DNA of 43,007 nt, from assembly GCA_964523515.1 (NCBI GenBank), contig CAZFZP010000001.1:59715-102721 (forward strand), in the 5' to 3' direction. The translations under genes and the position numbers were made by a program. The notes below the pieces were generated by a model, which saw nothing but the letters and a program-made list of their open reading frames with translations, had not been told where the DNA came from and ran no database searches. The stretch is from an uncultured Gammaproteobacteria bacterium. Lineage in GTDB: Bacteria; Patescibacteriota; Microgenomatia; Daviesbacterales; UBA10151. Of this stretch, positions 91-29,141 are shown piece by piece; within the stretch, counting starts at the first letter, position 1; every line of letters starts with the position of its first letter.

Positions 91-134
91 GACTCTTTAT
101 TCTAAAGAGGTTAGTTTTTTTACTAATCGTGGTG

Positions 135-143
135 TGCTACACT
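135..143 (+). promoter_or_regulatory. putative extended -10 promoter (TGcTACACT), leaderless-type
   Basis: TGn + TACACT ends 9 nt before the ATG at 153, and no SD sequence is present. Confidence 0.5.
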
Positions 144-152
144 GTGATCGTT

Positions 153-365
153 ATGGTTTTACTTTTAGTATTTATTTTATTACTGAACCTTATTTTCCCT
201 TCGACTGCAATGGCTTACTTAGATCCGGGTAGCGGTAGTTATTTTTTGCAAGTTGTCCTAGGTTTGTTACTCGGTTTTCTGTTTACACTTAAAATTTACT
301 GGGGGCATATTAAAACGTACCTTCAAAAAATTATTTCTAAATTATCTAATCGTATTAAGGAGTAG
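153..365 (+). CDS. small membrane protein with YLDPGSGS motif (signal-like segment, AxA site, TM helix, basic tail)
   Basis: In the ORF track as 129..365. The ATG at 153 is preferred because of the promoter spacing. Sequence: hydrophobic stretch, P-S-T-A-M-A, then YLDPGSGS, a hydrophobic helix and a Lys/Arg-rich tail. It ends 5 nt before the next gene. Confidence 0.8.
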   Translation: MVLLLVFILLLNLIFPSTAMAYLDPGSGSYFLQVVLGLLLGFLFTLKIYWGHIKTYLQKIISKLSNRIKE

Positions 366-370
366 GTTTA

Positions 371-1756
371 ATGGTACATCCCAGTTCATTCCGTGATCCA
401 AGTGGAGAAATTTTTCTTCACCAGGGACAAGTCTACCGGAATATTTCTAAACTATATAAAGAAAACTACCTGCACTTAATCAACTCCGGATTATATCAAG
501 AGTTAGTTCGACTCCAACTTCTAATACCCCACAAAGAGGTCAGGTCTATAAAATCTTCACCCTTATTTGACCATTTTAAAACCATCAAACCACTTCAGAT
601 ACCCTTTATATCCTATCCCTACGAATGGTCGATTAGCCAACTTAAAGATGCAGCTTTAACTATCCTGACAATTCAAAAAATCGCCCTTGAACACCAAATG
701 ATCCTAAAAGATGCCTCTGCATATAATATCCAATTCTTTCAAGGTAAACCTATCCTAATCGATACCCTGTCATTTGAAAAATACCAAGAAGGACAACCAT
801 GGATAGCCTACCGCCAATTTTGTATGCATTTTTTAGCCCCCTTAATGCTGATGAAACATACAGATCGTCAACTAAATAAATTGATGCAGCTATATATCGA
901 TGGAATACCCTTAGATTTAGCTAGTAAACTTTTACCAGTTCACACCTATTTGAACCGGGGAATCCTTTTTCATCTTCATCTTCACTCAAAAGCTCAGGTA
1001 TACTTTGCAAGTAGGCACAAAGATACAAAAAAATCAGCTGTAAGTAGACGTGGTTTAGAAGGACTCCAAGATGATCTTTCTAATATCGTTGAAAAAATCA
1101 CTTTAGCTGACAGTCAAACCGAGTGGGGAGATTACTACAATAATCATAACTACTCAATTAAGGCTCTCGCAGAGAAATCAAGACTAGTATCTCAACTTGT
1201 TAAGCAAACCCGGCCTAAAACGATTTGGGATTTTGGTTCTAACAATGGAATGTATAGTCATTTATTCAAACGCAAAGACTTACAGATTGTCTCATTTGAC
1301 TATGATACACAAGCCGTTGAATCTAATTACCTATATTGCAGAAAGTATAATCTAGTAACTTGCCTGCCTTTGCTGATGGATCTAAAAAATCCAAGCCCTG
1401 AAATCGGTTGGGGTAACCAAGAACGTTATTCTCTAACCCAACGGGGACCTACTGACACCTTACTGGTACTGGCGCTACTTCACCACTTAGTTATCACCAA
1501 TAACATACCCTTTATTAAGTTAGCCCAGTGGTTTAATCAGCTTTGTCAAAACATGATCATTGAATTCGTTCCTAAAACTGACTCCCAGGTTAAGAAATTG
1601 TTAGCAAATCGGGATAATTTTCTTTATGATTATGATGTTGAACAATTTGAAAGGGTATTCTCAAAACATTTTCGAATATTGAAGAAACAGCATATACAAG
1701 ACTCTGAAAGAATTATTTATTTAATGAAAACGCGTGGTGGGGAAACTCTCGGATGA
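371..1756 (+). CDS. noeA: NoeA-like protein: N-terminal protein-kinase-like domain fused to a class I SAM-dependent methyltransferase
   Basis: SFRDPSG, ISYPYEWS, LKDASAYNIQF (catalytic-loop-like) and IDTLSF (DFG-equivalent) in the N-terminal half. IWDFGSNNG SAM-binding motif I and LALLHH in the C-terminal half. The symbol means family resemblance only. Confidence 0.75.
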   Translation: MVHPSSFRDPSGEIFLHQGQVYRNISKLYKENYLHLINSGLYQELVRLQLLIPHKEVRSIKSSPLFDHFKTIKPLQIPFISYPYEWSISQLKDAALTILTIQKIALEHQMILKDASAYNIQFFQGKPILIDTLSFEKYQEGQPWIAYRQFCMHFLAPLMLMKHTDRQLNKLMQLYIDGIPLDLASKLLPVHTYLNRGILFHLHLHSKAQVYFASRHKDTKKSAVSRRGLEGLQDDLSNIVEKITLADSQTEWGDYYNNHNYSIKALAEKSRLVSQLVKQTRPKTIWDFGSNNGMYSHLFKRKDLQIVSFDYDTQAVESNYLYCRKYNLVTCLPLLMDLKNPSPEIGWGNQERYSLTQRGPTDTLLVLALLHHLVITNNIPFIKLAQWFNQLCQNMIIEFVPKTDSQVKKLLANRDNFLYDYDVEQFERVFSKHFRILKKQHIQDSERIIYLMKTRGGETLG

Positions 1757-3342
1757 TCTCTAGGATATTCAAACTACCTTTCTATCCAATTTTGATTGGT
1801 ATATTTCTAGCACTGTCATTATTCTCACTAAATATTAATGAGTTAGAAATTAGAGACTTAGCTCAACCTTTAAGTATCTCTCTTTTTATCGTCATTATTT
1901 TGTGGACTTTAATTAATTTCCTATTTCTTAGTAGAAGTAGGTCGGCGATAGTGACAACAGTAATCTCTATTTTTATCTTCACTTACAGTCGGGTGCATGA
2001 CCTAATCGAATTACTATTTTCTCCGAATTCTGAAACACAACTTCTCATTACTTATTTTTTAATGACACTGCTCATATCTCTAGTCGTCATCTATGTAGTA
2101 AAAAAAAATACTCTGAAGATTCCCGTTATTACGACGGTATTGAACATTTTAGCCTTATCTTTACTGGTTCCTCCGATTTTAACGATTAGTTTAGTTCACT
2201 GGGAGAGAATAAACCGTCTGATCATCACGAGCAATCTTTCTTATACCATTAAATTAGACAGCATAACTAACACTCCGGATATTTACTATATAGTCATAGA
2301 TAGTTATGCCAGCAATAGCTCCTTAAAGCAATTTTTTCAATACGAGAATTCTGAATTTACTGACTACCTAAAAGATAAGGGTTTCTATGTCGCTGACCAA
2401 AGTCAATCTAATTACCCACAAACAGTACTCTCTTTACCTTCAGCATTGAATATGAAGTATGTCGATGAATTGGTCAAACAAGTCGGTTTAACATCCCAAG
2501 ATACAGTACCATTATTTGAACATGGCGAGAAAAACCAACTAGTCTTATACCTTATATCGAAGAGTTATAAATTTTTTAATTTCGGAGCTGGTGGTTACTT
2601 TACAGAAAAAAATAGGTTTGCCGATTTTAATTATTCTTATAATAATCATAATATCAACATCTCTGCCATTACTAGATTATTCCTGGAACAAACATTACTG
2701 AACCCTCTTTTATCTCAACTTGATTGTACGGTACAATCTTCATTTATCTGTATTGGCTCGACTAACGACCGTAGAGATCTATATTATTATCAATTAGCCC
2801 ATCTAAAGCAGGTGCCCTTGATGGCCAAGGAACAAGGTCCTAAATTTGTTTTCGTACATTCGTTACTTGTCCACGGTCCATTTGTAATGAATGAAAAGTG
2901 TGAATACCTACCTCTTTTGGTTGAAAAATCAAAACCGTGGAGGGAGAATTACCGTAATGCTATCACTTGCACCAACCAATTATTAAAGGAGACTATCGAT
3001 GACATAATTAAAAATTCGGTTAATCCACCGATAATTATTCTTCAGTCTGATGAGGGTACTTACCCTGACAGGTTTAGAGGTACCAATATAGATCTAGGTT
3101 ACACTGATGCTACAGCTGATGAGTTGAAAGAAAAATTTGGTATCTTAAACGCTTATTACCTTCCAGATAGAAATCCCGATCAACTACTCTACCCTTCTAT
3201 TACTCCGGTAAATAGCTTTAGGGTTATTCTAAATTCATATTTTGGGGAAGATCTACCCTTAATTAAGGATGCCAGTTACTCTCCGATTCACAAAAAATAT
3301 CCTTACAATTTATTTGAGGTGACAACTTTATTAAAAAATTAA
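1753..3342 (+). CDS. membrane-anchored sulfatase-like / alkaline-phosphatase-superfamily protein (LtaS/EptA-like; NoeB-like)
   Basis: About 5 N-terminal TM helices, then PDIYYIVIDSY, SNYPQT..SLPS (putative Thr nucleophile), FVH...HGPF and IILQSDEG. ATGA overlap with the upstream gene. Confidence 0.75.
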   Translation: MISRIFKLPFYPILIGIFLALSLFSLNINELEIRDLAQPLSISLFIVIILWTLINFLFLSRSRSAIVTTVISIFIFTYSRVHDLIELLFSPNSETQLLITYFLMTLLISLVVIYVVKKNTLKIPVITTVLNILALSLLVPPILTISLVHWERINRLIITSNLSYTIKLDSITNTPDIYYIVIDSYASNSSLKQFFQYENSEFTDYLKDKGFYVADQSQSNYPQTVLSLPSALNMKYVDELVKQVGLTSQDTVPLFEHGEKNQLVLYLISKSYKFFNFGAGGYFTEKNRFADFNYSYNNHNINISAITRLFLEQTLLNPLLSQLDCTVQSSFICIGSTNDRRDLYYYQLAHLKQVPLMAKEQGPKFVFVHSLLVHGPFVMNEKCEYLPLLVEKSKPWRENYRNAITCTNQLLKETIDDIIKNSVNPPIIILQSDEGTYPDRFRGTNIDLGYTDATADELKEKFGILNAYYLPDRNPDQLLYPSITPVNSFRVILNSYFGEDLPLIKDASYSPIHKKYPYNLFEVTTLLKN

Positions 3343-22719: not shown

Positions 22720-24333
22720 CTAATACAGACTCACCAAGTAAAAAGCATCCGTTCCATTAGGATAACTTATTAGCTCTTTGATTTGAAATAGTGACTTTTG
22801 GCGTAAGCCATCATACTGACTGGGAGTTAATACATATAATAATCCTGGTTGTGGATCGCTCTCAATTGCATCCCAGTTTCCGAAGTTAAATTTAGAAAAC
22901 GAAGAAACTAAATTGGAACTCCTTTGATCTGTCTGATTATATTCAACAGTTTTTAAAAACTCAGGTAAAGGAATTTTAAGGTAGTATAACAAGAAAATAT
23001 ACGGTTGGGATCTTGCGTCCGTTACAAAAACAGTAGAATATTCCGGATTATCTTTTATATGCTCCGCAATTTGTTTCATCCCATATTGCCAATCAATTCC
23101 ATACTGCTTAGGATACGCAGTTAGATAGCTCTTAAAATAAATCGTTGTAAGATATGCCATCGTTAAGGTGACGGCAACAGCTACCAGTAATTTAACTCTA
23201 GTATTTTTGAAAAGCCCCATAACTCCCACAAGCCCAATAGCCTCGATTAAATGCCAGCTTCCCATGGTAAACAATGCCCGAGCTGCATGTGGAACTTCAT
23301 CTGTCCCTCCACTCAATGAGGCAGGTAAGGGGGCAATTAATGCCCAGAATAATAGCAGCAAATACTCTCTTTTTCTATTTTTTAGAATCCAGACAAACCC
23401 AGCTACTAAAAATAGAGCTTCGATTTGATAAAATTGTCCATATTTTTGAGTTGAGAATTTTGGATTACGATCACCACTTATAAAAAGATAGGTGGGCGAA
23501 AAATGTGCTAAATATCTATCGTAGGTTACCTCTAATCGTCCCAGGAAATAATTATTTGTTTGTTTGAAAAGCCTGGTGTTGCTAATGACATCTTCTGCGA
23601 TTGAGGTCTGTTTCATCCGAGCGAGTCCTAATAATGATGGTTGGATAACATAAAGCAGAGATGTTGTTAAGATGATGGCTAAAGAAAAAATTACATTCTT
23701 TTGAGAGTATAAAATCTCTTTTTTATATATAAAAGCTAATAAAAACATGGCCGGTGGCACCACCACCAAAGAGGCATGATATACTAGGATAGAGATTCCA
23801 AAACTAATCGTTGCCAGGGGTAAATATTTAGACATTCCATTTAATGATTTAAAAAACCACCAAAAACCAAGCATAAAGAAAAATAAAGCAAAATTAGCCT
23901 CGTGATTAAAACGGGAGAATTGGATAGCGTAAGGCGATATCGCCATCAACAATGCTCCTGCAAAACCTATCCGTTTATCCTTAAAGACATCTTTTCCAAT
24001 CAAAAATATTAATAAAACATTTAACACCCCAAATAAAGCTGGTGCAAATCTTACTGCAAAATCCGTTAAGCCAAACACTGCTACAAATGGGGCTGTTAAA
24101 TAAAAATGGATTGGATGCTTATCATCCTCAAAGGATTTAAAAACAAGCGGAAATAGATTTCCCCATTCATCCTTTCCATAATGAACTATGGTCCAAGCAT
24201 TATATCCAACCGCTGCTTCATCCCAAGAAATTGCTGGAGGAACTACCCCAAGTTGATAAAACCGCAAAAAGGAAGCAATAAGAAGAACCACTAATAGATA
24301 AAGTAAGTTTTTATTTCTCAATATCATAAACAT
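22720..24333 (-). CDS. ArnT/PMT-like GT-C glycosyltransferase (GT39/GT83-like)
   Basis: LR.Y.L...P...WDEA..GYNA, GKDEWG, SP..I.FSR, YL.HF.P..LF..GD, PH..RA and DWQYG. Confidence 0.88.
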   Translation of the reverse strand: MFMILRNKNLLYLLVVLLIASFLRFYQLGVVPPAISWDEAAVGYNAWTIVHYGKDEWGNLFPLVFKSFEDDKHPIHFYLTAPFVAVFGLTDFAVRFAPALFGVLNVLLIFLIGKDVFKDKRIGFAGALLMAISPYAIQFSRFNHEANFALFFFMLGFWWFFKSLNGMSKYLPLATISFGISILVYHASLVVVPPAMFLLAFIYKKEILYSQKNVIFSLAIILTTSLLYVIQPSLLGLARMKQTSIAEDVISNTRLFKQTNNYFLGRLEVTYDRYLAHFSPTYLFISGDRNPKFSTQKYGQFYQIEALFLVAGFVWILKNRKREYLLLLFWALIAPLPASLSGGTDEVPHAARALFTMGSWHLIEAIGLVGVMGLFKNTRVKLLVAVAVTLTMAYLTTIYFKSYLTAYPKQYGIDWQYGMKQIAEHIKDNPEYSTVFVTDARSQPYIFLLYYLKIPLPEFLKTVEYNQTDQRSSNLVSSFSKFNFGNWDAIESDPQPGLLYVLTPSQYDGLRQKSLFQIKELISYPNGTDAFYLVSLY

Positions 24334-25849
24334 AGAAAGCTACTTTCCCTGTCAGATCCTCTATGATCTTACTTTCTGATAGCTGAGCTATTTTTTGATC
24401 GGGATCCACAAAAACTAAGTATCTGCCAGTGGGTAATGAGTCAATCTCCAAATTTTTGAATTCAAAGTTTGCAAATTCAGACACTGTTGAGATTCCCCAC
24501 TTATCAGCTCTGTTATATTTAACCTCTGACCTAAATTTTTCTGGAGGATATTTTAAGTAATAGAGGGCAAAAATATAAGGTTGTCCGTATCTATCACTGA
24601 TGATAACTTTATCATACATTTTGAATTTATCTTGATAGGACAAAAACAACTGTTTGTAAGGATACTGCCAATCCCCTGAGGAAGCATTATTGTATCTCGT
24701 TAAAAAGGCATTCCAGTACACTCCAAAACTGCCAAGAAAAATCATCAAGATTATAGATAATAAAAGCGTTTTATACTTTAGATAACCGATTAATTGGGTA
24801 ATACCCAAAGCTGTAACCAATGAAAAAAAGGGAAATAGAGCTATCGATCTTAAGGCATGGGGGGATTCTTTGGTGATCACGGCGGGGATAGGAGCTATCA
24901 GAGTAATTAAAATCACCCATATATTAAGCGGTTTATTTTTCCAAAACAAATATAGCACTCCAGATATTAAAAACGGTACAAAGATCCAATACAGCTCACC
25001 AAACCCCTGGAGATGGCTTCTTTGGTTAAGATCCCCACTTATAAATAAGAAGTGTAGGTTAAAGTGACCCAGATAATTTTGTATTAACTGGGGTAATAAA
25101 CTTATTTCAGTATCTCGGTTAAAAAGACTAACTCTTTCAAATCTAGTACCGCCTTCTGGAGAAAGCAAAAAGCGCAGTATGGGCGCATACGATAAAACTA
25201 GCACTAACACAAAAAGCAGCGGGTGTTTTAGTTGGATAAATCCTGATTGATGCCTAAAATAGCTAAAAATCAGAAATGGTAAGGCAAGTGGTACCAGCAA
25301 TCGGAAACTATTATAGCTATACATACTTAGGGCTAAACTTATTGCTGAAAAAAGCAGTAATTTTGGCATCTGCAATGATTTGAAAAAGACATAAACTCCC
25401 AACATAAAAAAGAACAATCCTGCCGTTGCCTCATAACCAGTCCTACTAAAAATAAAATAGCCTGGAGTGACGGTAAGAATAAAAGCTCCTAATAACCCAG
25501 TCGTGATACTGTAAAACATATTCTTGCCAATCAGATAAATTACTATTATTGTTCCTAAAGAAAATACTACGGCTGGCAATCTTAATGACCACTCATTAAA
25601 TCCCAAGATCATTTGGAACAGTGAAACTGTATAAATATAAACAGGTAGTTTAAATTCGCCAAAAGCTCGCAGATGAAGCGGGAGAAAATCTCCCCATTCA
25701 TCTTGTCCGTTTTGAGTTATAGAATAGGCATTATAGGCAATCGATGCTTCGTCCCAATATAATGACGCTGGAATCTCATTTATTTTGTATAAACGAGTTA
25801 CCAAAAACAGAATAATTATTAGTATAAAAAGTATTCTTTTTAGTTCCAT
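24311..25849 (-). CDS. ArnT/PMT-like GT-C glycosyltransferase
   Basis: WDEASIAYNA, GQDEWG, FGEFKLP, FSRTGYE, PHALRS and DWQYP. Confidence 0.88.
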   Translation of the reverse strand: MELKRILFILIIILFLVTRLYKINEIPASLYWDEASIAYNAYSITQNGQDEWGDFLPLHLRAFGEFKLPVYIYTVSLFQMILGFNEWSLRLPAVVFSLGTIIVIYLIGKNMFYSITTGLLGAFILTVTPGYFIFSRTGYEATAGLFFFMLGVYVFFKSLQMPKLLLFSAISLALSMYSYNSFRLLVPLALPFLIFSYFRHQSGFIQLKHPLLFVLVLVLSYAPILRFLLSPEGGTRFERVSLFNRDTEISLLPQLIQNYLGHFNLHFLFISGDLNQRSHLQGFGELYWIFVPFLISGVLYLFWKNKPLNIWVILITLIAPIPAVITKESPHALRSIALFPFFSLVTALGITQLIGYLKYKTLLLSIILMIFLGSFGVYWNAFLTRYNNASSGDWQYPYKQLFLSYQDKFKMYDKVIISDRYGQPYIFALYYLKYPPEKFRSEVKYNRADKWGISTVSEFANFEFKNLEIDSLPTGRYLVFVDPDQKIAQLSESKIIEDLTGKVAFYVYDIEK

Positions 25850-27492
25850 TCGACAATTTCAAAAGCAAGATTACCATCTAGAAAATTTACAGTTTTTAAT
25901 CTGGGAACATCGCTGGGAAGATCTCCACCTTTACCAATAAACAATAATTTTTTTCCCTGATTTTCTTCAATTATATCTTCAAACTTAGTACCAGTATCTC
26001 CTAAATCTGGAAAGTAATATTTATCAAACTTTAACACTCTTACCCAATCATGAGTTTCAAACCTGATTAAGTTAGAATTATTTTGATATTGGACAGGATC
26101 AAACCCAAGAAAGAAAAGCATAAACATGTGTGGTTCCCCATAATGCCTACTAAATATAACAGTGTCGTATTTATCTTGATTTTCCTTGACATATTCAACA
26201 ACCTCTTTGTAACCATATTGCCAATCTCTTGAATAATTTTTAGGGTACACAAAAAATAGATTTTGCAGATATAAATAAATACTAAATACAACCATAGCGG
26301 TAAATGTTAAAAGTACAATGCTCGATAAAATTTGACCCCTATTCTTAACCCACTGCCATCCCTTAACTATTCCCAATCCACAGACCATTAAAAATGGTGG
26401 CAGAGTTATCATAGTTCTTAGGGCATGGGGAATACTGTCATTGGTCACTGAAACTGGTACAAATCCTAATAATATCCAGGAAGATAAAAGAAACCTAAAT
26501 TTATTTTTTTCTTTAAATAAACAGTATAGTCCAATAAAAAGTAACGGTAATTGGAATAAATATAGCTGTCCCACACCTTGAACGTGATGTTGTTTATGTG
26601 GCGCCCCAGAGATAAATAGAAAATCAGGTGTAAAATGAGCTAAGTAGTTACTGGCAATATAATAACTTATATAAGTCACTTTATTGTGAATTAATCTGGG
26701 TAGCGGATCCGGAAGAGTGGATAACCCTCGTCGCTCATTAATTCTAGGAACTAACCCCGGATCATCAGTCACACTAACCAGCTTGTACCGAGAGTTTCTA
26801 TCCTGACTTACGGTGAATGGAACTAAGGGCAGCAGCAGCACCCCAAACAGTATCAACACCACCAATAGCTGTTTCTTCCACCTTAAAAGGTCTTTTCTGT
26901 ATATCCATAAAATAACCACTAAAAACAGTGGCACAAAGACCCTGGCACTGTTATAGGTATAAACTGAGAGTGCCAAAGGAATCATTGCTAAAATTAACCA
27001 CTTTTTATCCTCAAATCCTTTTACCAATAACCACACACCTAAAACTATCCAAAATACCGCAAAAGATGACTCAAATGAGGCCCGGGTTAATTGAATATGC
27101 CAAGGAGAGATAGCTAGTAAAAAAGCTGCGGTTGCGCCTATTAAATCACTCCTAAATATCTTTCTTGTCAAAAAATACAGCAATAAAACCGTCAGTGTCC
27201 CATAAATAACCGGTGTGATTCTTACTCCTAGCTCATTTAGCCCAAACAAGTAAATACCAGGGATGGAAACATAGATTTGAGCTGGTAATTTATACTCGCC
27301 ATACGCCTTGAAATGAACCGGAAAAGTTACCCCCCACTCGTCTTTTCCAGTCTTCATTACAGAATAGGCGTTATAAGCAATCGAAACTTCATCCCAATTT
27401 AGACTAGGTGGAACCTCAGTAACCTTGTAGAATCTCAAAAAGAAGGCAATAGCTACAATCAGGATCAAAAAAAGTATGTTTCTTAAATTCAT
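25840..27492 (-). CDS. ArnT/PMT-like GT-C glycosyltransferase
   Basis: WDEVSIAYNA, GKDEWG, YGEYKLP, SPWHIQLTRASFE, PHALR and DWQYG. Confidence 0.88.
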   Translation of the reverse strand: MNLRNILFLILIVAIAFFLRFYKVTEVPPSLNWDEVSIAYNAYSVMKTGKDEWGVTFPVHFKAYGEYKLPAQIYVSIPGIYLFGLNELGVRITPVIYGTLTVLLLYFLTRKIFRSDLIGATAAFLLAISPWHIQLTRASFESSFAVFWIVLGVWLLVKGFEDKKWLILAMIPLALSVYTYNSARVFVPLFLVVILWIYRKDLLRWKKQLLVVLILFGVLLLPLVPFTVSQDRNSRYKLVSVTDDPGLVPRINERRGLSTLPDPLPRLIHNKVTYISYYIASNYLAHFTPDFLFISGAPHKQHHVQGVGQLYLFQLPLLFIGLYCLFKEKNKFRFLLSSWILLGFVPVSVTNDSIPHALRTMITLPPFLMVCGLGIVKGWQWVKNRGQILSSIVLLTFTAMVVFSIYLYLQNLFFVYPKNYSRDWQYGYKEVVEYVKENQDKYDTVIFSRHYGEPHMFMLFFLGFDPVQYQNNSNLIRFETHDWVRVLKFDKYYFPDLGDTGTKFEDIIEENQGKKLLFIGKGGDLPSDVPRLKTVNFLDGNLAFEIVEWN

Positions 27493-27554
27493 AACTGTTA
27501 TTTAATGGTATCAACTTCTTCAAGGGAAGTAAATTAATCTTAAACAAGAGACAG

Positions 27555-29141
27555 TTAATTAACTGGAGAGTACAACTTGAATCCAATTTTATGATTAGGT
27601 AGAGAAATTTCATGCACTACTTTCAAATTTCTTGCCGGGTCAGGAATATTGTCATGAGGAACTACATATAAATAATTTTTTTGAATTTTTTCATTGTCCC
27701 AATTGATATCCCTAAACTGGTACTTATCAAAAGTAATTCCAAATGAAATGATCTTTGCCTCCTGAACCTTACGCGGATCTAAATAGGTATAAAAAGGTAT
27801 GTATGAACTAGGTACGCCAATATAGTAATATTCCTTGTCTCCAAATCTACGATCAATAATAATCTGCTCAAACTGATCATAGTGCTGATTAATATACTGG
27901 GCTATCTGCTTGTAGCCATATTGATACCCCTGTGCATTCTCAATAGGGAAATAGATAAAGTAAGCCAGGACAAAATAAAAAAACGACAGTAGCACGAGTC
28001 CCCCTCCTAAAGCCTTTAACCAGATGCTCTTTTTTACAAAGTTCAAGATATACAAAATTCCCACAGCAGTAATCATTACTGTCGGTACCAACTGAGGTAG
28101 GCTTCTCCAATTATTGACTTCTCCTTGAGTTACAGAGGCTGTTAAGGGTGAGGCAATTAGTAGAAAAAAGACAAATTTACTATTACCTTGATAAAGAGTC
28201 TTTAACTTAGATAGTCCCCAAACAAAGGCAACTAAAAAGGGGGCTAGAAAGAATCCAAATTGGTAAGGATTTTCCTTAGGTAACATTCTGGCACCATAAA
28301 AAAATTGATAGTCTAGGCTTGTATATAACGAATACTTATCCAGAACTGCCTTTAATATGATCTGAAATCTTTGATAAGGGTTAGAATATTCCGATAAGAG
28401 TCGTCCTACACCTATATCTTTAGTAATGAATTCACTATTAGCCCGACTTGAGCTTAGATTAGAAATAAAGTCAAGAAAAATAGGTGTTATCAGTATAGAA
28501 AATAACAATAGAGCTCCTAGATAAATTTTCTTTTTAAAAACGGCTTCTCTATTGAAAACCAGCAATGCAAGTATAATCATTGGTGTTAAAACCCATTCAG
28601 TGTAATATGAGTAAATCGACAGAGCAAAAGAGATAAAGCTTAATAGGGTCAGCCAATCCTTGCTATATCTTAGGCCTAAAAAAAACAAGTAAATTCCCAA
28701 AACGACGAAAAATAGAGCATAGTTTGATTCCAATGCCCAGCGAGAAGCTGAGAAATGCCATGGGGAGAAAGCCAGCAAAAAAGATGTGACTATTGCAAGT
28801 TTTCTATTTTTTGTGAGCTCCATGACCAGAAGCCCAACCAAGACAACTGTCAAACTCCCTAAAATCGCCGAAGGGAGACGGACGGCAAAGTCATCATTAC
28901 CTAATAGTGAGATGGTGATTAACGGTATGTAGACCGCTAAGGGTGCTCCGTAACCTCCATGAGATCTCCATAATATCGGTAAATATTCACCTGTCCCATC
29001 TTTCAAAGTTTTGGAGATTGAGTAAGCTGCATATGCTGATCCGATTTCATCATTAGATAAATGTGGAGGAACATAATCCAACAAAACAAAACGGGCTACA
29101 AGCGCTATAAAAATTAATGCAAAGACATATTTTATGTACAT
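27555..29141 (-). CDS. ArnT/PMT-like GT-C glycosyltransferase
   Basis: NDEIGSAYAA, VRLPSA, SPWHFSASRWALE and GYQYG. Confidence 0.85.
   Translation of the reverse strand: MYIKYVFALIFIALVARFVLLDYVPPHLSNDEIGSAYAAYSISKTLKDGTGEYLPILWRSHGGYGAPLAVYIPLITISLLGNDDFAVRLPSAILGSLTVVLVGLLVMELTKNRKLAIVTSFLLAFSPWHFSASRWALESNYALFFVVLGIYLFFLGLRYSKDWLTLLSFISFALSIYSYYTEWVLTPMIILALLVFNREAVFKKKIYLGALLLFSILITPIFLDFISNLSSSRANSEFITKDIGVGRLLSEYSNPYQRFQIILKAVLDKYSLYTSLDYQFFYGARMLPKENPYQFGFFLAPFLVAFVWGLSKLKTLYQGNSKFVFFLLIASPLTASVTQGEVNNWRSLPQLVPTVMITAVGILYILNFVKKSIWLKALGGGLVLLSFFYFVLAYFIYFPIENAQGYQYGYKQIAQYINQHYDQFEQIIIDRRFGDKEYYYIGVPSSYIPFYTYLDPRKVQEAKIISFGITFDKYQFRDINWDNEKIQKNYLYVVPHDNIPDPARNLKVVHEISLPNHKIGFKLYSPVN

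Follow-up and report, generated by a model that had tools for sequence, protein, structure and literature searches.

The rhizobial genes noeA and noeB have been known since 1995 as host-range genes of unsolved chemistry, and homologues occur in well over 1,000 species (PMC9758233). The NoeA family, represented by Lani_1194 of Legionella anisa, has been described as joining an atypical kinase and a methyltransferase in one protein (Krysinska et al., 2022, PMC9758233); among 816 Lani_1194 neighbourhoods, homologues of Lani_1193 were present in 65% and homologues of Lani_1195 (NoeB) in 38% (PMC9758233). The cassette is therefore already in print, with its chemistry unsolved and its microprotein annotated solely as hypothetical. 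Here we describe a small open reading frame (ORF) at positions 153–365, forward strand, of a 43,007-nucleotide stretch of contig CAZFZP010000001.1 (assembly GCA_964523515.1, positions 59,715–102,721; hereafter the window) from a small-genome groundwater bacterium. As judged by its sequence and that of its relatives, this ORF is a real gene for a tiny single-pass membrane protein and the first gene of a conserved trio with homologues of noeA and noeB.

The first gene of the dlt operon, dltX, is easily missed. WbdD of Escherichia coli O9a carries its own membrane-binding C-terminus, and M13 procoat and Pf3 coat are small N-out/C-in membrane proteins made up of a leader, a short acidic translocated stretch, a transmembrane (TM) helix and a basic tail. 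DltX spans the membrane once; this microprotein has an invariant Tyr on its outward side, binds the membrane enzymes of its pathway and has a motif that is fused in related systems. Its FXYXXF motif is C-terminal, its partners are MBOAT and SGNH proteins and the reaction served is acyl transfer (PMC12148441). WbdD phosphorylates the glycan terminus and regulates O-antigen chain length (PMC3482155), and N-out proteins usually insert in a manner dependent on YidC and the proton motive force (PMF) (PMC8548208).

The noeA locus of Sinorhizobium meliloti pSymA and the trio of the window share the microprotein family and the gene order (small ORF, noeA, noeB). On pSymA, the gene that separates nodL from noeA encodes a 71-amino-acid 'hypothetical protein' (WQP30190.1) of the family, whose leader ends in AHA and precedes YLDPGTGS, a TM helix and a basic tail; its ORF overlaps the start of noeA, and noeB follows. 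The settings differ, the pSymA copy lying in a nod operon and the cassette of the window at the edge of a large glycan gene cluster. The pSymA protein may correspond to Lani_1193; the main text of PMC9758233 does not define Lani_1193. A tblastn search of plasmids with the small protein returned nothing at E ≤ 0.1 although the pSymA copy exists, the search being insensitive for such a query.

WbdD, a bifunctional kinase and methyltransferase, resembles NoeA, which combines a kinase-like with a methyltransferase domain, and was both the best PDB sequence match of the NoeA profile (E 0.0037) and rank 2 in Foldseek. The domain order is reversed relative to NoeA and, unlike WbdD, NoeA has no membrane-binding C-terminus of its own and is accompanied by what appears to be a separate small anchor. 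In overall design and size the protein of the window is analogous to M13 procoat and Pf3 coat; it is unrelated to them in sequence, and an invariant motif is lacking in the coat proteins. The likeness to DltX had been raised when the window was read from its sequence alone (hereafter the sequence-only reading). The sole conserved Tyr motif of the window protein is N-terminal, and no MBOAT (DltB) or SGNH (DltD) family was detected in a Pfam scan that took in 25 window proteins, the annotation reaching as far as position 29141. With both hallmarks absent, membership of the DltX family fails on present sequence data, and only the idea of a relay survives from that comparison.

A widespread family of predicted membrane microproteins

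Read from the ATG at 153, the small ORF comprises 70 codons and a stop at 363–365; from the first in-frame GTG, at 129, it would encode 78 amino acids. A word-indexed search yielded 15 candidates, 14 of which were relatives of similar length at E ≤ 0.01 that share A-Y-L-D-P-G-S and a Gln in the helix. Against the profile of these 14 relatives the ORF of the window scored E 5e-30 (103 bits), which makes it a member of an unnamed YLDPG(S/T)GS microprotein family. Run against 1.84 billion representatives, the same profile matched 12,977 clusters at E ≤ 1e-3, and 4,926 clusters passed the stricter limit of E ≤ 1e-10; the 150 best representatives were 59–175 amino acids long. Neither Pfam nor NCBIfam holds a model for the small protein, the scans giving sub-threshold noise only (FTR1, 18.3 bits against a cut-off of 25.3), and its ESM Atlas matches were solely clusters of 'hypothetical protein', at or below 0.89. 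A literature search found no paper containing YLDPGSGS, YLDPGTGS, YIDPGTGS, YIDPGSGS or YLDPG, and one chance match for YIDPG. The contigs of four DNA sequencing runs, aligned to positions 1–1200 of the window, listed no sequence differences within 153–365. Of the 20 sequencing runs found, none was listed as an RNA run containing the sequence.

The encoded protein would begin with a 21-residue leader, MVLLLVFILLLNLIFPSTAMA (153–215), which has a hydrophobic core, Pro at −6, A-M-A at −3 to −1 and no Lys or Arg in its n-region. The conserved motif YLDPGSGS follows at 216–239 and is predicted to face outward from the positive-inside rule and from the fusions described below. The TM helix, Y30–W50 (240–302), contains Q33, invariant in the family, and the small-xxx-small pair G37/G41; it runs into a basic, probably amphipathic tail, K47–E70 (291–362), predicted to be cytoplasmic, in which I-S-K occupies the place of the consensus F-S-K/R. 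Six Lys or Arg residues (K47, K54, K59, K63, R67 and K69) and H52 lie in this tail, which ends in SKLSNRIKE. A second in-frame ATG at 210 encodes M20. All of these features lie on the forward strand, and the copy in the window matches the family pattern, in which A-Y-[LI]-D-P-G-[ST]-G-S precedes a TM helix carrying Gln at +11 and the protein ends in a basic tail. The sequence-only reading had proposed just these parts, from a leader ending P-S-T-A-M-A without a basic n-region to the alternative ATG, and had taken the ORF for a real but easily overlooked gene; both points were borne out, the first in every coordinate and the second by the match to the family profile and by a Singulisphaera plasmid on which a family ORF stands in the corresponding place and is missing from the (incomplete) gene table of PLSDB.

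Of the 150 best representatives, 142 could be parsed with a strict motif pattern, and each of the remaining eight departs from it at one motif residue; because the position statistics rest on the best-scoring members, they somewhat overstate conservation across the family. In these 142 sequences the motif Tyr was invariant and never replaced by Phe or Trp, and it was accompanied by Asp at +2 (141), Pro at +3 (142), Gly at +4 (135), Ser or Thr at +5 (141), Gly at +6 (139) and Ser at +7 (138). Within the helix, Gln at +11 was likewise invariant (142), with Ala or Gly at +15 in 141 and Gly at +19 in 124, and this combination of a small-xxx-small pair with an invariant Gln suggests helix packing. 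The tail was less uniform, with Lys at +25 (129), Trp at +28 (135), Phe at +34 (116), Ser at +40 (90) and Lys or Arg at +41 (99).

Preceding the motif, position −1 was Ala in 136, Gly in five and Ser in one of the 142 sequences, and position −3 was Ala in 104, Val in 21 and Ser in 10 (135 together), with Pro at −6 in 64. A hydrophobic leader was present in 137 of the 150 best representatives; 134 of these 137 had small residues at −3 and −1 and 125 had a basic n-region. By these measures the signal peptidase I site is textbook-like in most family members. The leader of the window copy, VLLLVFILLLNLIF, shows a hydrophobic h-region, a helix breaker near −6 (P16) and small residues at −3 and −1 (A19 and A21); it differs from the 125 representatives with a basic n-region in having neither Lys nor Arg, whether translation starts at ATG 153 or at GTG 129. 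It is probably removed by signal peptidase I after A-M-A. Processing had also been put forward in the sequence-only reading, and for the family at large it stands on the residues at −3, −1 and −6; it does not extend to every lineage, since leaders are weak or absent in 13 of the 150 best representatives and in several Chloroflexota copies. Such minority leaders, including those of several Chloroflexota copies, are weakly hydrophobic or non-hydrophobic, with Lys, Glu or Pro at −3. Cleavage would accordingly not be universal, and a free N-terminal Tyr not essential in every lineage.

Other explanations of the motif itself were discarded. Its occurrence by chance was rejected. A sortase- or exosortase-type sorting signal was rejected on account of the N-terminal position of the motif, a tail of excessive length and the lack of a linked enzyme of that kind, and a lipoprotein was rejected for want of any Cys.

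Some variants of the protein and some occurrences of the motif in other proteins were also seen. One protein of 161 amino acids (P0015) contains two tandem copies of the whole module (leader, motif, TM helix and tail) in a single ORF, an arrangement that would agree with each leader crossing the membrane in the outward direction. A variant with extra hydrophobic segments after the motif (81 amino acids past the motif) was found at locus L107 (contig G196:C2, forward strand), with no NoeA or NoeB within 1.5 kb. Two related genomes, G031 and G026, encode homologous large, Cys-rich secreted proteins (L008:1405–2904 and L009:1411–3075, respectively) with a signal peptide ending in Ala, then YVDPGTG at the predicted mature N-terminus and no TM helix after it; neither genome has a NoeA or a strong NoeB match. 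The motif in these proteins may reflect its use outside the cassette, or convergence.

Linkage to noeA and noeB homologues

In the window the small ORF lies directly upstream of a NoeA homologue (371–1756), with a NoeB homologue nearby (1753–3342). Its conservation in this position was assessed in loci collected with the pattern AYLDPGSGS, taking one genome per species; there were at least 600 matches, 473 of these were confirmed and the best 80 loci were kept. They cover Patescibacteria, Chloroflexota, Binatia, Bacteroidota, Planctomycetota, Acidobacteriota, Gammaproteobacteria, a Bradyrhizobium and one Nitrosopumilus contig. A NoeA homologue was directly downstream in 71 of the 80, mostly overlapping or no more than 60 nucleotides away, and an iterated hidden Markov model search found NoeA in 71, a NoeB-like protein in 66 and both in 64; two loci without an adjacent NoeB had a strong NoeB homologue elsewhere in the genome (E 8e-143 and 5e-138). 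A separate DNA-motif scan, covering 401 Patescibacteria genomes, identified 20 matches spread over 17 of them, and the reversed control had none. Two matches from an unpublished genome were set aside. The 18 matches analysed were all small ORFs of the family, followed by NoeA in 16 cases, by a NoeB-like protein in one and by neither in one. The tight linkage to a NoeA-like gene that the sequence-only reading had supposed was seen in 71 of 80 loci and in 16 of 18 Patescibacteria matches; both sets were found through the motif, so that they overstate conservation and are silent on NoeA genes without a small ORF.

Among 61 related small genomes, five had NoeA and the same five a strong NoeB, and closely spaced or overlapping pairs of small ORF and NoeA gene occur in relatives. 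The small ORF was intact in four of the five and a remnant in the fifth; the other 56 had no clear copy of the cassette. In the fifth (G016, contig C66, locus L006, minus strand, about 1486–1706) the small ORF is in frame over its tail half alone, its motif half is broken and the adjoining NoeA has an internal TAG, which may reflect joint decay of the cassette or an assembly error.

At two Acidobacteriota loci (L050 and L052) the small ORF is followed by a 1,023-amino-acid protein with PPDK_N and PEP-utilising mobile domains that replaces NoeA and is, by its domains, another ATP-dependent phosphotransfer enzyme.

Fusions to cytoplasmic enzymes and a related TagF cassette

A single-sequence search of longer proteins had given no fusions, a failure of sensitivity, as later profile hits show. 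The profile search returned 523 hits at E ≤ 0.1 among 8,000 scored candidates, and the 120 best were classified. In 87 the module preceded a TagF-like glycerophosphotransferase domain (motif within the first 60 residues in 86), in 17 it preceded NoeA (15) and in one, P0172, an S-adenosylmethionine (SAM) methyltransferase (motif also within the first 60 residues); the remaining 15 were other proteins or over-long gene calls (9). Taking the TagF-like and NoeA fusion hits together, 101 of 104 thus had the motif among their first 60 residues. The TagF fusions, annotated as 'CDP-glycerol glycerophosphotransferase family' (PF04464), form clusters of up to 26 members and come from named isolates (Neptunomonas, Vibrio and Sneathiella) as well as from Nitrospira and others. 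The family profile matched them with E-values down to 5.8e-11 in a search of 5.8 billion sequences, and A-Y-L-D-P-G-S-G was invariant in all 20 that were aligned. Their module (leader, AxA, YLDPGSGS, TM helix and basic stretch) is homologous to the free protein. It differs in being fused to an enzyme, in not keeping the Gln at +11 and in its partner, a YidC-like protein fused or adjacent to an outward phosphotransferase domain. As far as our searches show, the homology of the free microprotein to the N-terminal anchor of TagF-like proteins is apparently undescribed; a literature search on YidC, TagF and LtaS together gave nothing relevant.

The fusions bear directly on topology. Their catalytic domains need cytidine diphosphate (CDP)-glycerol, ATP or SAM and must be cytoplasmic, so that the motif would lie outside and the tail inside. 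An accessory subunit, one of the roles named in the sequence-only reading, is accordingly the best supported, as the same module is fused in frame to NoeA or TagF-like enzymes. Its further suggestion that the motif is a substrate of the neighbouring kinase-like domain is disfavoured, since the fusions place the catalytic domain after the TM helix and the positive-inside rule then puts the motif on the opposite face.

Among 79 metagenome loci with TagF fusions, the motif lay in the TagF ORF in 77, NoeA was found in none and a NoeB-profile hit in 24. A YidC-like ORF adjoined in 61 of these 79 loci, against two of the 80 NoeA-type loci. Pfam detected 60KD_IMP in five of 10 TagF-locus neighbours tested, and four of these five also had a sulfatase-fold domain. 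Proteins of about 840–1,000 amino acids that fuse a YidC/Oxa1-type insertase to an outward sulfatase-fold domain are encoded beside the anchor–TagF fusions at loci L113–L191, and at some of these loci the YidC-like part stands alone as a protein of about 240 amino acids. The outward domains of the TagF-cassette proteins and of NoeB are homologous (hhalign probability 97.9%, E 5.6e-13), and the membrane block of NoeB does not align with the YidC-like block. As the anchor and the outward domain are common to both types of cassette, and the cytoplasmic enzyme and the membrane block vary, the small protein can be read as a bridge. The YidC-like partner in TagF cassettes would also fit the YidC- and PMF-dependent insertion of N-out proteins.

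Partner enzymes and the surrounding window

The NoeA homologue of the window (371–1756, forward strand) has 461 amino acids, comprising an N-terminal atypical kinase-like domain and a C-terminal class I SAM methyltransferase. It is 31% identical to Sinorhizobium noeA (97% coverage, E 5e-61), and 65 plasmid records match it. The kinase assignment is taken from PMC9758233, with which the residues R23, D114, N119 and D131, invariant in 34 of 34 aligned sequences, agree as candidate catalytic equivalents; Pfam detects no kinase in the protein. The predicted model (predicted local distance difference test, pLDDT, 90.6) matches class I methyltransferases over residues 247–459 with VIA-align Z-scores of 16–18. 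A methylphosphate-capping enzyme came first (Z 17.8), tied within two Z units with many others including WbdD (16.1). The Foldseek and VIA-align matches fall on the methyltransferase domain, with the N-terminal kinase-like domain outside them.

The NoeB homologue (1753–3342, forward strand; 529 amino acids) has an N-terminal helical membrane block and a predicted outward domain of the alkaline phosphatase superfamily with a Thr nucleophile (Pfam Sulfatase, E 4e-5, and fold matches). The top Foldseek matches of its model (pLDDT 89.6) were EptC (6a82, E 4.6e-9), MCR-1 (9nww), ICR-Mc (6bnc) and EptA (5fgn), and as modelled the protein has the architecture of membrane phosphotransferases of the EptA/EptC/MCR type. 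T224 was conserved in 33 of 34 aligned sequences, and D183, H369, H374 and D433 are kept. At 3049–3057 (NoeB residues 433–435) the metal-binding D-H-G is D-E-G in the window, position 434 being His in 29 and Glu in five of the 34. A phmmer search of NoeA and of NoeB against PDB sequences gave nothing significant.

The ORF upstream of the small gene, on the same strand, encodes a polytopic membrane protein of at least 470 amino acids and ends 38 nucleotides before it. The cassette borders the large glycan gene cluster noted above, and four consecutive glycosyltransferase paralogues of PMT_2/GT-C type (512–550 amino acids) were found at 22720–29141 on the reverse strand. This region is rich in GT1, GT2 and GT4 genes and also encodes a Wzx-type flippase, a DegT aminotransferase, a formyltransferase and epimerases.

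Proposed role

We consider it reasonably probable that the small protein acts as an anchor of procoat-like, N-out/C-in topology, keeping NoeA at the membrane next to NoeB, the EptA/MCR-like enzyme. Removal of the leader would leave a protein of 49 residues with about eight of them (YLDPGSGS) outside, one TM helix and the basic tail inside, that is, a free-standing form of the anchor that elsewhere is fused N-terminally to cytoplasmic envelope-modifying enzymes. The tail, replaced by a covalent link in the fusions, would keep NoeA, a soluble kinase-like/methyltransferase protein, at the inner membrane face, while the helix, with its small-xxx-small pair and Gln, and the outward stub would sit against NoeB, so that a phospho-head-group made inside could be handed to a transferase acting outside. 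A plausible chemistry would have NoeA phosphorylate and methylate a membrane-bound acceptor, as WbdD does a glycan terminus, after which the product would cross the membrane and an envelope glycan would receive the phospho-head-group from NoeB, in the way that EptA and LtaS enzymes draw on bulk lipids for their transfers. For the noeA homologue the ribosome-binding site, AAGGAG at 357–362 (forward strand), lies within the last two codons of the small ORF and 8 nucleotides before ATG 371, and was counted in favour of an anchor.

Several observations weigh against this proposal. Nine of the 80 loci have no NoeA beside the small ORF; in two of these NoeB follows directly, in two the PEP-utilising/PPDK-like protein of 1,023 amino acids is present, in one a methyltransferase, a TagF-like enzyme and a YidC-like protein are found, and some contigs end early. 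Nearly all of the 17 anchor–NoeA fusions come from metagenome clusters with a single member, and some, such as P0182 and P0181, are plainly gene calls extended too far in GC-rich DNA, so that part of them may be read-through artefacts; the TagF fusions are solid. The Gln at +11 is replaced by Ser, Gly or Ala in TagF fusions, and the helix contacts may therefore differ between the NoeA and TagF systems. In the window itself the leader is without a basic n-region, the start codon is uncertain and no ribosome-binding site lies at the usual distance from ATG 153 or GTG 129: the nearest AAGAGG (105–110) is 18 nucleotides before GTG 129, and no such sequence precedes ATG 153. The frame is open back to position 78, where a K/KR is encoded, with no ATG, GTG or TTG before 129. 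Finally, a plain tether leaves the role of the invariant outward motif unexplained, and for that reason a DltX-like relay or a part in lipid handling keeps some probability.

A wider proposal, which we put forward as a speculative and rather unlikely one, is that the invariant outward stub YLDPG(S/T)GS is a coupling element or a covalent head-group relay of a widespread, unnamed machinery for envelope decoration from inside to outside. One anchor would join interchangeable cytoplasmic enzymes (NoeA, TagF-like proteins and methyltransferases) to homologous outward transferases of the alkaline phosphatase superfamily (NoeB or YidC-like fusions), and the rhizobial noeA/noeB genes would represent, together with the TagF/YidC-phosphotransferase cassettes, a single system in two forms.

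Taken by itself, a covalent relay like DltX seems unlikely. Here an outward Tyr, Ser or Thr would briefly carry a phospho-head-group taken by the Thr nucleophile of NoeB from a donor lipid and then pass it to the acceptor, or the stub itself would be the acceptor, as pilin is for Neisseria PptA. The invariant Tyr, in 142 of 142 sequences and never Phe or Trp, and the near-invariant Ser/Thr at +5 (141) and Ser at +7 (138) are what such a role would lead one to expect; the motif is also kept with an outward alkaline phosphatase-superfamily domain in both types of cassette, and DltX, a microprotein found both free and fused and with a Tyr on the outward side that never varies, provides a precedent (PMC12148441). 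The motif is, however, unlike FXYXXF and at the opposite end of the protein, and the fusions attach it to the cytoplasmic enzyme and not to the outward one. Moreover, we know of no need for a protein relay in EptA, LtaS or MCR enzymes.

A lipid-handling helper, in which the helix with its invariant Gln and the Gly/Ser-rich stub at head-group level would bind a donor lipid made by NoeA or help to flip it for NoeB, is in our view quite unlikely. It would accord with the Gln at +11 in 142 of 142 sequences and with the YidC-like membrane block of the TagF-cassette partner (61 of 79 loci; 60KD_IMP in five of 10 neighbours tested), but that Gln is not kept in the TagF fusions, and the donor lipid is purely hypothetical.

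Very improbable is a role as substrate or regulator of the kinase-like domain of NoeA through the Ser of the cytoplasmic tail (I-S-K; consensus F-S-K/R) instead of the motif. The tail would lie on the same side of the membrane as NoeA, and Ser at +40 and Lys or Arg at +41 recur in 90 and 99 of 142 sequences; the Ser is nevertheless far from invariant, and the anchor also serves TagF-like and methyltransferase enzymes without a kinase domain. That the ORF of the window yields no functional protein, having arisen by chance or serving as an upstream ORF of the leader-peptide type that is translated solely to regulate noeA, would agree with the uncertain start, the missing clear ribosome-binding site and a 10-pair inverted repeat at 126–148 (forward strand) that covers GTG 129 between the upstream membrane-protein gene and ATG 153, but is hardly credible in view of the conservation in thousands of clusters and many phyla and of the in-frame enzyme fusions.

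Implications

For the window alone the finding is an ordinary one, namely one more copy of the cassette in a Patescibacteria genome beside a surface-glycan cluster. For the family it adds the microprotein as a third conserved part of the noeA/noeB cassette, and a reconstitution with NoeA and NoeB that omits it may fail. The fusion to TagF-like enzymes yields a concrete hypothesis, in which the protein would tether and bridge at the membrane, and it connects two cassettes hitherto viewed separately.

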